Positions 25,898 to 33,663 of a DNA stretch of 64,000 nt are shown in pieces. The notes beneath the pieces are model-generated. The model was not told the DNA's origin. It made no database searches and saw only the letters and a list, made by a program, of their open reading frames with translations. Position 1 is the first letter of the stretch. Each line of letters starts with the position of its first letter. This DNA comes from Escherichia coli. GTDB taxonomy: Bacteria > Pseudomonadota > Gammaproteobacteria > Enterobacterales > Enterobacteriaceae. Location: the NCBI RefSeq assembly GCF_024502345.1, contig NZ_JALDNN010000001.1. One strand, written 5' to 3'. Position numbers and translations under genes: made by a program.

Positions 25898-25987
25898 GTG
25901 AGTGCAGGCGTGATAACCGGCGTATTGCTGGTGTTTTTATTACTGGGTTATCTGGTTTATGCCCTGATCAATGCGGAGGCGTTCTGA
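25898..25987 (+). CDS. kdpF: K+-transporting ATPase small subunit KdpF (29 aa)
   Basis: GTG-initiated 29-codon hydrophobic ORF (M)[35 protein letters not shown] upstream; stop overlaps kdpA ATG (TGATG). Confidence 0.85.
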
Positions 25988-27660
25988 TGGCTGCGCAAGG
26001 GTTCTTACTGATCGCCACGTTTTTACTGGTGTTAATGGTGCTGGCGCGTCCTTTAGGCAGCGGGCTGGCGCGGCTGATTAATGACATTCCTCTTCCAGGT
26101 ACAGCGGGCGTTGAACGTATACTCTTTCGTTTACCTGGCGTCTCTGACCGTGAGATGAACTGGAAGCAATATCTCTGTGCCATTCTCGGCCTGAACATGC
26201 TGGGGCTGGCGGTGCTGTTTTTTATGTTGCTCGGTCAGCACTATCTGCCGCTTAATCCACAGCAGTTGCCGGGGCTGTCGTGGGATCTGGCGCTGAATAC
26301 CGCCGTCAGCTTTGTCACGAATACCAACTGGCAATCTTACAGCGGTGAAACCACGTTGAGCTATTTCATCCAGATGGCTGGCTTAACGGTGCAAAACTTT
26401 CTTTCTGCCGCCAGCGGGATTGCGGTGATTTTTGCCCTCATCCGTGCGTTTACCCGCCAGAGCATGAGCACACTCGGGAATGCCTGGGTCGATCTGCTAC
26501 GCATCACGTTATGGGTGCTCGTCCCTGTGGCGTTGTTGATCGCACTGTTTTTTATTCAACAAGGTGCGCTGCAAAACTTTCTGCCCTATCAGGCAGTGAA
26601 TACCGTTGAAGGAGCGCAACAGCTGTTACCCATGGGGCCAGTAGCTTCTCAGGAAGCGATCAAGATGCTCGGTACTAACGGCGGTGGCTTCTTTAATGCC
26701 AACTCGTCGCATCCGTTTGAAAACCCAACCGCACTGACCAACTTCGTGCAGATGCTGGCGATCTTCTTGATCCCAACAGCGCTGTGCTTTGCCTTTGGTG
26801 AAGTGACGGGCGATCGCCGCCAGGGGCGCATGTTGCTGTGGGCGATGTCGGTGATTTTTGTCATCTGCGTAGGCGTGGTGATGTGGGCAGAAGTTCAGGG
26901 TAATCCTCATCTGCTGGCGCTCGGCGCAGACAGCAGCATCAATATGGAAGGTAAAGAGAGCCGTTTCGGCGTGCTGGTCAGTAGCCTGTTTGCGGTCGTG
27001 ACTACGGCGGCGTCCTGTGGCGCGGTGATTGCGATGCATGATTCGTTTACCGCTCTCGGTGGCATGGTGCCGATGTGGCTGATGCAAATTGGTGAAGTGG
27101 TATTCGGCGGTGTCGGCTCTGGTCTTTACGGCATGATGCTGTTTGTCCTGCTGGCGGTGTTTATTGCCGGGCTGATGATTGGTCGTACACCGGAATATCT
27201 GGGTAAAAAAATCGACGTACGTGAGATGAAACTGACTGCACTGGCGATTCTGGTCACCCCGACGCTGGTGCTGATGGGCGCGGCGCTGGCAATGATGACC
27301 GACGCCGGACGTAGCGCCATGCTCAACCCTGGCCCGCATGATTTTAGCGAAGTGCTGTACGCCGTGTCATCCGCCGCTAACAACAACGGCAGCGCCTTTG
27401 CCGGATTAAGCGCCAACTCTCCGTTCTGGAACTGTTTACTGGCGTTCTGCATGTTTGTCGGTCGCTTCGGGGTGATTATCCCGGTGATGGCAATTGCCGG
27501 TTCGCTGGTGAGTAAAAAGAGCCAACCCGCCAGCTCCGGCACGCTGCCAACGCACGGCCCGCTGTTTGTTGGCCTGTTAATCGGCACCGTGTTGCTGGTT
27601 GGCGCACTGACCTTTATCCCTGCCCTGGCGCTTGGTCCGGTGGCGGAATATCTCTCCTGA
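25987..27660 (+). CDS. kdpA: K+-transporting ATPase subunit A
   Basis: ORF-track 605 aa trimmed to [32 protein letters not shown] (557 aa). Confidence 0.95.
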
Positions 27661-27682
27661 TGATATTGAGTGAGCACTGAAT

Positions 27683-30312: not shown

Positions 30313-32989
30313 CGAACCCTTACGTCCCGACCCCGATCGTCTGCTGGAACAAACTGCCGCGCCGCATCGGGGGAAGCTGAAAGTTTTCTTCGGTGCCTGC
30401 GCAGGCGTCGGGAAGACCTGGGCGATGCTGGCAGAAGCCCAGCGACTGCGGGCGCAAGGGCTGGATATTGTGGTTGGCGTGGTAGAAACCCACGGGCGGA
30501 AAGATACTGCAGCAATGCTCGAAGGGCTGGCTGTTCTACCGCCAAAACGCCAGGCGTACCGTGGGCGGCACATCAGCGAGTTTGATCTCGATGCCGCCCT
30601 CGCCCGCCGTCCGGCGCTGATCTTAATGGACGAACTGGCGCACAGTAATGCACCTGGTTCTCGTCATCCCAAACGCTGGCAGGATATTGAAGAGCTGCTG
30701 GAAGCAGGCATTGATGTTTTTACTACCGTCAACGTTCAACATCTGGAAAGCCTGAATGATGTGGTCAGCGGCGTCACCGGAATTCAGGTACGGGAAACCG
30801 TGCCCGATCCTTTTTTCGATGCCGCCGACGACGTGGTGCTGGTGGACTTGCCCCCGGACGATCTGCGCCAGCGGCTGAAAGAAGGCAAAGTCTATATTGC
30901 CGGGCAGGCGGAGCGCGCCATTGAACATTTTTTCCGCAAAGGCAATCTGATCGCCCTGCGCGAACTGGCACTGCGCCGTACTGCCGATCGCGTAGATGAG
31001 CAAATGCGCGCCTGGCGGGGGCATCCTGCCGAAGAGAAAGTCTGGCACACGCGCGACGCGATCCTTTTATGCATCGGCCATAACACCGGCAGTGAGAAAC
31101 TGGTCCGCGCGGCGTCGCGGCTGGCGTCGCGGCTGGGGAGCGTCTGGCACGCGGTGTATGTTGAAACCCCTGCCCTGCATCGCTTACCGGAGAAAAAACG
31201 TCGGGCAATTCTCAGCGCCTTACGTCTGGCGCAGGAGCTGGGCGCGGAGACGGCAACACTTTCTGATCCAGCGGAAGAGAAAGCGGTAGTGCGTTATGCC
31301 CGTGAACATAATCTCGGCAAGATTATTCTCGGTCGCCCAGCCTCGCGCCGCTGGTGGCGTCGGGAAACGTTTGCTGACCGACTGGCGCGCATCGCCCCCG
31401 ATCTCGATCAGGTGCTGGTCGCGCTTGATGAACCACCCGCCCGCACGATTAACAACGCGCCGGATAGCCGCTCTTTTAAAGACAAGTGGCGGGTACAGAT
31501 TCAGGGATGCGTGGTTGCCGCCGCGTTATGCGCCGTTATCACCTTAATTGCCATGCAGTGGCTGATGGCGTTTGATGCCGCCAACCTGGTGATGCTGTAT
31601 CTACTTGGCGTGGTGGTGGTGGCGCTATTTTATGGACGCTGGCCTTCGGTGGTTGCTACCGTCATTAATGTGGTGAGTTTCGATCTCTTTTTTATCGCCC
31701 CACGCGGCACGCTCGCCGTCTCTGATGTGCAATATCTGCTGACCTTCGCGGTGATGTTAACCGTCGGGCTGGTGATCGGGAATCTTACTGCGGGTGTGCG
31801 TTATCAGGCGCGGGTAGCCCGTTACCGCGAGCAACGCACACGGCACTTATATGAAATGTCGAAAGCTCTGGCGGTGGGCCGCAGTCCGCAGGACATCGCC
31901 GCCACCAGCGAACAATTTATTGCCTCCACGTTTCATGCCCGCAGTCAGGTGTTGTTGCCCGATGACAACGGTAAATTGCAGCCGTTAACACATCCGCAAG
32001 GAATGACGCCGTGGGACGATGCCATCGCGCAGTGGAGTTTTGATAAAGGCCTGCCTGCGGGCGCGGGCACCGACACGTTACCCGGCGTGCCGTACCAGAT
32101 TTTGCCGTTAAAAAGCGGTGAGAAAACCTACGGGCTGGTGGTGGTGGAACCGGGGAATCTGCGTCAGTTGATGATCCCGGAACAGCAGCGCCTGCTGGAG
32201 ACGTTTACGCTGTTAGTCGCCAATGCGCTTGAGCGGCTGACGCTGACCGCCAGCGAAGAACAGGCGCGGATGGCAAGCGAACGTGAACAGATCCGCAACG
32301 CCCTGCTGGCGGCGCTTTCGCATGATTTACGCACTCCGCTCACGGTGTTGTTCGGTCAGGCAGAAATCTTAACGCTCGATCTGGCAAGCGAAGGATCGCC
32401 CCACGCCCGCCAGGCCAGCGAGATTCGTCAGCATGTGCTGAACACTACCCGACTGGTGAATAATCTACTGGATATGGCGCGAATTCAGTCCGGCGGCTTT
32501 AATTTGAAGAAAGAGTGGTTAACGCTGGAAGAAGTAGTCGGCAGCGCGCTGCAAATGCTGGAACCGGGTTTATCGTCGCCCATCAACCTTTCTCTGCCAG
32601 AACCGCTGACCTTAATCCACGTTGACGGGCCACTCTTTGAACGGGTGCTGATTAATCTGCTGGAGAACGCGGTGAAATATGCGGGTGCGCAGGCGGAAAT
32701 TGGTATCGATGCCCACGTTGAGGGCGAAAATCTACAACTGGATGTCTGGGATAACGGCCCCGGTCTTCCGCCAGGCCAGGAGCAGACGATATTTGATAAA
32801 TTTGCTCGCGGGAATAAAGAGTCGGCAGTACCGGGTGTAGGGCTTGGACTGGCAATTTGTCGGGCGATAGTGGATGTACACGGGGGCACTATTACCGCGT
32901 TCAACCGACCGGAAGGTGGTGCCTGTTTTCGTGTTACACTTCCCCAGCAAACTGCCCCTGAACTTGAAGAATTTCATGAGGATATGTGA
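30305..32989 (+). CDS. kdpD: sensor histidine kinase KdpD
   Basis: ORF-track 905 aa trimmed to [38 protein letters not shown] (894 aa); Walker-A-like KdpD N-terminal domain, Usp domain, TM segments, HisKA H-box (SHDLRTPL) and HATPase. Confidence 0.95.
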
Positions 32990-33663
32990 CAAACGTTCTG
33001 ATTGTTGAAGATGAACAGGCTATTCGTCGCTTTCTGCGCACGGCGCTGGAGGGCGACGGTATGCGCGTCTTTGAGGCCGAAACGCTGCAACGCGGCTTGC
33101 TGGAAGCGGCAACCCGTAAGCCAGATTTGATTATTCTCGATCTCGGCCTGCCCGATGGTGATGGGATTGAGTTTATCCGCGACCTGCGCCAGTGGAGCGC
33201 GGTGCCGGTGATTGTGCTTTCCGTACGCAGCGAAGAGAGCGACAAAATCGCCGCGCTGGATGCCGGAGCGGATGATTATCTAAGTAAGCCGTTTGGCATT
33301 GGCGAATTGCAGGCCCGTCTGCGCGTCGCTTTACGCCGCCACTCCGCCACCGCCGCGCCAGATCCGCTGGTGAAATTTTCCGATGTTACCGTCGATTTAG
33401 CCGCCCGCGTGATTCACCGGGGTGAGGAAGAGGTGCATCTCACGCCGATTGAATTCCGCCTGCTGGCGGTGCTGCTGAATAATGCCGGGAAAGTGCTCAC
33501 CCAGCGCCAACTCCTTAACCAGGTGTGGGGGCCAAACGCGGTCGAACACAGTCATTATTTGCGTATTTATATGGGACATCTGCGACAAAAACTGGAACAG
33601 GATCCCACCCGCCCCCGCCATTTCATTACTGAAACCGGTATTGGGTATCGGTTTATGCTTTAG
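32986..33663 (+). CDS. kdpE: response regulator KdpE (OmpR family)
   Basis: 225-aa [40 protein letters not shown]...; receiver domain plus winged-helix; ATG overlaps kdpD stop. Confidence 0.97.
   Translation: MTNVLIVEDEQAIRRFLRTALEGDGMRVFEAETLQRGLLEAATRKPDLIILDLGLPDGDGIEFIRDLRQWSAVPVIVLSVRSEESDKIAALDAGADDYLSKPFGIGELQARLRVALRRHSATAAPDPLVKFSDVTVDLAARVIHRGEEEVHLTPIEFRLLAVLLNNAGKVLTQRQLLNQVWGPNAVEHSHYLRIYMGHLRQKLEQDPTRPRHFITETGIGYRFML

Follow-up and report, generated by a model that had tools for sequence, protein, structure and literature searches.

A kdpFABCDE locus of canonical architecture in Escherichia coli, with gaps at two of its five gene junctions

We assign, with a probability of roughly 97%, positions 25898–33663 of a 64-kb stretch of Escherichia coli DNA (referred to below, at its full length of 64,000 nucleotides, as the window) to the canonical E. 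coli kdpFABCDE locus. The locus is already known, ranks among the best-studied operons of E. coli, and reproduces reference annotation throughout; we found no evidence that contradicts the identification. The products KdpF, KdpA, KdpB and KdpC are subunits of an ATP-driven, high-affinity K+ pump, while KdpD phosphorylates KdpE when K+ is limiting. Limitation for K+ induces the operon (PMC7657598). The six genes are as follows.

25898–25987, + strand: kdpF, 29 codons with a GTG start and a TGA stop, preceded 6 nt upstream by the Shine-Dalgarno (SD) sequence GGAGG
25987–27660, + strand: kdpA, channel-like K+-binding subunit, 557 aa (TIGR00680, 997 bits, cut-off 388)
27683–29731, + strand: kdpB, P-type ATPase subunit, 682 aa (TIGR01497, 1279 bits, cut-off 528)
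29740–30312, + strand: kdpC, 190 aa (TIGR00681, 334 bits, cut-off 153)
30305–32989, + strand: kdpD, sensor histidine kinase, 894 aa (NF007793, 1834 bits, cut-off 1123, full-length alignment)
32986–33663, + strand: kdpE, OmpR/PhoB-type response regulator, 225 aa with a GTG start (NF007820, 485 bits, cut-off 325)

In an HMM search, all six products (KdpF, KdpA, KdpB and KdpC among them) scored above their NCBIfam equivalog cut-offs. Each of the six frames is full length and free of frameshifts and internal stops, in agreement with a preliminary description of this DNA that had reported an unbroken kdpF frame. All six gene boundaries equal those in the RefSeq (PGAP) annotation of the nearest genome, FDAARGOS_944, which is 99.8% identical. 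At least 80% of the locus is present in 5414 of 5426 complete E. coli genomes, and identity of at least 99% over the locus is found in only 3 of 5451 matching records. An Rfam scan of the whole window at the gathering threshold returned no RNA family between 25.5 and 34 kb and no riboswitch 5′ of kdpF.

The smallest gene is also well defined. KdpF scores 76.7 bits against NCBIfam model NF011332 (cut-off 56), aligned over residues 1–29 of 29, and fits the single-helix peptide of ∼29 residues whose gene immediately precedes kdpA and which forms part of the pump complex. Its sequence equals that of K-12 KdpF (100% identity), and KdpF chains were matched in 25 PDB entries. Among solved KdpFABC complexes (e.g. 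PDB 5mrw, 6hra and 6hrb), for which the comparison concerned KdpF only, it equals the 29-residue chain D of 6hra residue for residue. The proposal that kdpF is a real, GTG-initiated gene of 29 codons is thus borne out by these identities and by the same coordinates in PGAP. In KdpB, residues 305–313 read LLDKTGTIT, which provides the DKTGT motif with D307, and residues 159–163 read TGESA, which provides the A-domain TGES motif with S162. Judged by these features of their sequences, the genes at 25987–30312 together with kdpF are predicted to encode the KdpFABC type IA P-type ATPase K+ pump.

The two regulators likewise retain the hallmarks of a two-component system: KdpD is a full-length kinase with the H-box SHDLRT, and KdpE carries D52 (within LIILDLGLP) as well as R193, R200 and T215, the residues that contact DNA (PMC3264566).

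The locus has the same gene order, the same six gene lengths and the same start codons (including GTG for kdpF and kdpE) as kdpFABCDE of E. coli K-12 MG1655 (b4513, b0698–b0694), and all five junctions (−1, +22, +8, −8 and −4 nt) agree as well. The canonical arrangement claimed in the preliminary description therefore holds, its architecture being identical to that of K-12. From kdpA to kdpE, 194 nucleotides and 26 amino acids differ from K-12, with nine substitutions in KdpA (whose gene has no internal stops), six in KdpB and four in KdpC.

The same description had gene boundaries overlapping throughout the cluster, and this does not survive inspection of the junctions, of which three of the five overlap and two are gaps. 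As had been described, kdpF and kdpA share TGATG, with an overlap of 1 nt, and kdpC and kdpD overlap by 8 nt (ATGAATAA), so that the kdpD ATG lies within the 3′ end of kdpC. However, 22 nt (27661–27682) separate kdpA from kdpB, and 8 nt (29732–29739) separate kdpB from kdpC, where the SD sequence of kdpC (GAGG) overlaps the kdpB stop. The overlap between kdpD and kdpE does measure 4 nt, as had been stated, but its sequence is GTGA rather than ATGA because kdpE starts with the GTG at 32986; the ATG at 32984–32986 belongs to kdpD, whose final sense codon it forms, and is out of frame with kdpE.

The SD energies vary along the operon, at −10.6 kcal/mol for kdpF, −9.5 for kdpA, −4.7 for kdpB, −6.3 for kdpC, −3.1 for kdpD and −6.1 for kdpE, with a background mean of −2.8; the value for kdpD is thus close to background. 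Junction geometry and SD strength together suggest translational coupling within the operon, and because two junctions are gaps, such coupling would not be uniform across it. The genes kdpF and kdpA appear to have strong SD sequences of their own while abutting by a single base. As kdpD is nearly devoid of an SD sequence and overlaps kdpC by 8 nt, it most probably relies for its translation on ribosomes that complete kdpC, and kdpE, with its GTGA overlap and a moderate SD sequence, is likely coupled to kdpD. Among the papers listed by a literature search on kdpF or kdpFABC, none contained the phrase ‘translational coupling’.

Upstream of kdpF lie the elements expected to control transcription of the operon.

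25799–25815, + strand: KdpE operator, TTTATActtttTTTACA, with direct-repeat half-sites TTTATA-N5-TTTACA
25832–25866, + strand: predicted core kdpFABC promoter, with a −35-like hexamer TTGCGA (25832–25837), a poor −10 element and a start near 25866

The operator consists of two AT-rich, 6-bp direct repeats, S1 (TTTATA, 25799–25804) and S2 (TTTACA, 25810–25815), that are separated by the 5-bp spacer CTTTT and located upstream of the kdpF promoter. It matches the KdpE half-sites with a 5-bp spacer defined previously (PMC3264566), and the 21-bp minimal site known from the literature maps to 25796–25816. The sequence has one exact match in the 64-kb window, versus none in 100 shuffles, and is identical in K-12; an intact KdpE operator before the cluster, as noted in the preliminary description, is therefore present. 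The half-sites have been numbered −67 to −62 and −56 to −51 for a promoter derivative (bioRxiv 10.1101/256826), and it is from this numbering that we infer a transcription start near 25866. A consensus sigma-70 scan, which misses weak promoters, listed nothing at the kdpF promoter; since that promoter is activator-dependent, its absence from such a scan is expected and uninformative. The operator and core promoter region equals that of K-12 apart from a C-to-T difference at 25821 (approximately −45), which lies between S2 and the −35 hexamer and outside the minimal site.

As is established for this system, phosphorylated KdpE binds both half-sites (here at 25799–25815), upstream of a weak sigma-70 promoter, and thereby activates a transcript, with its predicted start near 25866, that encodes KdpF, KdpA, KdpB and KdpC. 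This transcript reads through into kdpD and kdpE, providing positive feedback on the regulators.

The genes kdpD and kdpE might instead form a unit of their own, expressed mainly from a promoter within kdpC, with the overlap of kdpC and kdpD reflecting packing rather than a coupling device. We regard this as possible, with the odds somewhat against it. Polarek, Williams and Epstein reportedly described, in 1992, a weak kdpDE promoter inside kdpC that supports basal expression, and if kdpDE have a promoter of their own in kdpC, read-through is not the sole source of their mRNA. A scan of the + strand over 25560–34000, the kdpC interior included, found no consensus-like promoter, although weak promoters would be missed by it. 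The literature does speak of separate ‘kdpFABC and kdpDE operons’ (PMC5458449), and in M. smegmatis kdpDE has its own promoter for basal transcription and is co-transcribed under low K+ (PMC5401905). However, kdpDE falls within the KdpE iModulon, is differentially expressed (kdpE knockout, K+ limitation) and is co-regulated with kdpABC despite the absence of a KdpE ChIP-exo peak upstream of kdpDE (PMC7657598). The lack of a usable SD sequence at kdpD (−3.1 kcal/mol) also favors dependence on ribosomes arriving from upstream. The two modes are in any case compatible, with an internal promoter serving basal expression and read-through serving induced expression.

Downstream of kdpE, the locus departs from K-12. 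In K-12, speFL-speF-potE-ybfI′-ybfG′-ybfP lies between kdpE and pgm, whereas here REP elements are followed directly by pgm; ∼5.7 kb of K-12 sequence (ybfP to speFL) is absent, and the breakpoint falls within the stop codon of kdpE (TAG here, TGA in K-12). On the other side, ybfA adjoins ybgA-phrB, where K-12 has rhsC. Three genomes (FDAARGOS_944, FDAARGOS_943 and O18ac:H14 873.10) share 99.8% identity with this DNA over 8.3 kb, with ∼0.2% of bases differing; their annotated coordinates agree with those given here, and the surrounding gene order is likewise ybgA-ybfA-kdp-pgm-seqA. In FDAARGOS_943 the matched span is interrupted by an IS5 insertion, and the usher gene ybgQ is a pseudogene in FDAARGOS_944 and an open frame in the window. 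An arrangement in which kdpE adjoins pgm is found in 353 genomes, ∼6% of E. coli genomes. Two features occupy the spacer.

33673–33790, unstranded: REP-type palindromic elements between kdpE and pgm, where inverted repeats were found
33793–33825, unstranded: bidirectional intrinsic terminator (GC-rich hairpin flanked by an A-run and a T-run, covered by an inverted repeat)

The first of these has a homologous, REP-bearing counterpart in K-12, located downstream of pgm, and its elements account for the ∼15–17 additional matching places per genome in our genome searches. The terminator, whose sequence is also conserved with K-12 downstream of pgm, folds at −16 kcal/mol (z = −4.3), and none of 200 shuffles folded as well. 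The consensus scan did not list a kdpE-pgm terminator, which is uninformative because the stem contains a mismatch; folding confirmed it. The kdp operon would end at this bidirectional terminator, in common with the convergent pgm.

It appears very improbable that the C-to-T difference near −45 and the replaced sequence 3′ of the kdpE stop (TGA to TAG at the breakpoint) are functionally meaningful rather than neutral. If they are, these changes could alter the threshold of induction by K+, or the stability of the kdpDE 3′ end or termination there, and such effects would concern those ∼6% of genomes with kdpE next to pgm.

Very little credence is due to the idea that the locus, in a divergent lineage, is decaying or no longer functional. 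The scarcity of close matches (3 of 5451 records at or above 99% identity), the 26 amino-acid substitutions relative to K-12 and the rearranged flanks point in that direction. However, all six frames are full length without internal stops, their products score far above the equivalog cut-offs, the residues for catalysis and DNA binding are preserved, and the operator and core promoter differ from those of K-12 by a single base that lies outside the minimal site. Moreover, only 26 of the 194 coding differences change an amino acid, the pattern expected under purifying selection. We therefore rejected pseudogenization on the basis of intact frames, equivalog scores, conserved residues and mostly silent differences.

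As had been remarked of the open reading frame track, kdpF has no separate call in a mechanical list of longest ORFs, where its frame occurs only within a single 67-aa ORF that starts with an ATG (25784–25987). That this longer ORF, rather than the 29-codon gene, is what the kdpF frame encodes can be dismissed, since its ATG lies upstream of both the KdpE operator (25799–25815) and the inferred transcription start (∼25866) and is therefore not on the kdp mRNA, while the end-to-end alignment to the KdpF HMM (1–29 of 29), the 29-residue KdpF chain in solved structures, the GGAGG 6 nt before the GTG at 25898 (duplex energy −10.6 kcal/mol) and the 29-codon gene used by both PGAP and the K-12 annotation all speak for the short form. 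Longest-ORF callers also place the starts of kdpA, kdpC and kdpD too far upstream, at TTG codons. The claim that kdpF is easily missed applies to such naive calling but not to current annotation, since kdpF was annotated in every one of 60 E. coli genomes from RefSeq that were drawn from across the ranking.

The locus in itself matters little, and HMM-based annotation already solves the start-site errors of longest-ORF calling. What the canonical kdpFABCDE locus does illustrate is that full overlap of the genes of an operon is not to be assumed from a few of its junctions.

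We read the kdpFABCDE region (25898–33663), which carries the genes of the high-affinity K+ pump and of the KdpD/KdpE regulator, and every one of its junctions directly.

Genes of the kdp operon (window coordinates), with the anti-Shine-Dalgarno (SD) duplex energy of each (background mean −2.8 kcal/mol) and the junction with the following gene
kdpF, 25898–25987; GTG start, 29 sense codons, TGA stop; −10.6 kcal/mol; 1-nt overlap with kdpA (TGATG)
kdpA, 25987–27660; −9.5 kcal/mol; 22-nt gap before kdpB
kdpB, 27683–29731; −4.7 kcal/mol; 8-nt gap before kdpC
kdpC, 29740–30312; −6.3 kcal/mol; 8-nt overlap with kdpD (ATGAATAA)
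kdpD, 30305–32989; −3.1 kcal/mol; 4-nt overlap with kdpE (GTGA)
kdpE, 32986–33663; GTG start; −6.1 kcal/mol

The preliminary description had the gene coordinates and the kdpF/kdpA and kdpC/kdpD junctions right. It also gave the correct size for the kdpD/kdpE overlap but read it as ATGA rather than GTGA; the ATG at 32984 is the final sense codon of kdpD, in a frame other than that of kdpE. The cluster is not fully overlapped, as had been claimed, because two of its five junctions are gaps.

When positions 25600–33900 were compared by megablast with 5,426 complete E. coli genomes, 5,414 contained the locus at a coverage of at least 80%, and FDAARGOS_944 was the top match (99.8% identity). Only three of the 5,451 matching records (FDAARGOS_944, FDAARGOS_943 and O18ac:H14 873.10) reached at least 99% identity over the locus, and the remainder lay between 95% and at most 98.5%, which places the window in an E. 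coli lineage that has been little sampled. All six coordinate pairs agree exactly with the PGAP annotation of FDAARGOS_944, the gene lengths, start codons and junctions equal those of K-12 MG1655, and all six products exceeded the curated cut-offs of NCBIfam equivalog models, bearing out the canonical arrangement described earlier. Compared with K-12, KdpA to KdpE carry 9, 6, 4, 4 and 3 substitutions, respectively, and no internal stops. The DKTGT and TGES motifs of KdpB and the H-box of KdpD (SHDLRT) are intact, and KdpE retains D52 together with R193, R200 and T215, which have a DNA-contact role (PMC3264566). We conclude that this operon is intact, canonical and already known.

KdpF aligned with its NCBIfam model over the full length (1–29 of 29) and is identical both to K-12 KdpF and to chain D (29 residues) of PDB entry 6hra, one of 25 PDB entries with matching KdpF chains; such identity to a structure chain is stronger evidence of a real protein than the ribosome profiling suggested earlier. 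The absence of kdpF as a separate ORF call was reproduced with a caller that takes the first start after a stop, which gave its frame solely as a 67-aa ORF from the ATG at 25784 and also moved the starts of kdpA, kdpC and kdpD out to TTG codons further upstream. The view that kdpF is easily missed thus holds for naive ORF calling but not for current annotation: with a 141-nt query across kdpF, matches were obtained in 5,423 of the 5,426 complete genomes, and all 60 records drawn at even intervals from the ranked matches carried a kdpF annotation. Statistics applied to short genes can lose kdpF too, as in the KdpE iModulon, which it did not join (PMC7657598). In E. coli SCU-301 (L004:429–506), an in-frame deletion of 12 nt has eliminated ITGV from the N-terminal portion of the KdpF helix. 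The gene for the resulting natural 25-aa KdpF keeps both its kdpF annotation and its 1-nt overlap with kdpA.

The experimentally defined KdpE site comprises two half-sites, a 5-bp spacer and a 21-bp minimal site (PMC3264566). The published half-sites and spacer are present at 25799–25815 (TTTATA-CTTTT-TTTACA), the minimal site mapping to 25796–25816, so that the intact operator reported ahead of kdpF is confirmed; this sequence occurs once in the 64-kb window and in none of 100 shuffles. Half-site positions of −67 to −62 and −56 to −51, published for a promoter derivative (bioRxiv 10.1101/256826), would place the transcription start near 25866, implying a kdpF 5′ UTR of approximately 32 nt. 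The 312-nt ybfA–kdpF spacer differs from K-12 by three single bases (25620, 25731 and 25821). The last, a C-to-T change at approximately −45 from the inferred start, lies between the second half-site and the −35-like hexamer (25832–25837), outside the minimal operator. An Rfam scan of the window at gathering level found no family in the ybfA–kdpF regulatory region. Matches elsewhere (two naRNA4, two ES036, a seven-tRNA cluster and sroC; 1345–1415, 5789–5859, 23248–23290, 49537–49579, 51906–52607 and 60998–61160) are all as expected for this chromosomal region in E. coli.

An A-run/hairpin/T-run terminator (33793–33825; −16 kcal/mol, z = −4.3), shared with the convergent pgm, closes the operon. 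REP-type palindromes precede it in the kdpE–pgm spacer (33673–33790), and because of them queries containing this segment match approximately 15–17 places in each genome, with a few plasmids among those hit. Homology to K-12 on this side breaks off within the kdpE stop codon, which reads TAG in the window but TGA in K-12; nine bases, GCGGTTAAA (33664–33672), match neither K-12 flank, and 33673–33885 corresponds to K-12 715150–715362, comprising the pgm 3′ end, terminator and REP elements. The window therefore lacks approximately 5.7 kb of the K-12 pgm–kdpE interval (ybfP, ybfG′, ybfI′, potE, speF and speFL). In only 353 of the 5,426 genomes do kdpE and pgm lie approximately 1.1 kb apart or closer. 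On the other side, ybfA adjoins ybgA–phrB (24768–25585) without the rhsC that follows ybfA in K-12, and FDAARGOS_944 likewise lacks this element. The frame of the fimbrial usher gene ybgQ (12052–14553) is open throughout in the window, whereas the FDAARGOS_944 annotation lists this gene as a pseudogene containing an internal stop.

We infer from the sequence that translation may be coupled within the operon. The SD duplex energies point to kdpD as the gene most likely to rely on ribosomes that finish translating kdpC, while kdpF and kdpA could probably initiate on their own. Under K+ limitation KdpD phosphorylates KdpE, whose phosphorylated form then binds to the operator and switches on a weak promoter, so that KdpFABC is made; kdpDE lies in series downstream of kdpFABC. 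Polarek et al. are said to have described, in 1992, a weak kdpDE promoter within kdpC. In K-12, no KdpE ChIP-exo peak was seen ahead of kdpDE, which nevertheless forms part of the KdpE iModulon and shows differential expression on kdpE knockout when K+ is limiting; the authors of that ChIP-exo study took kdpDE to belong to the same transcription unit as the pump genes (PMC7657598). A shared transcription unit and an internal promoter in kdpC are compatible with each other.
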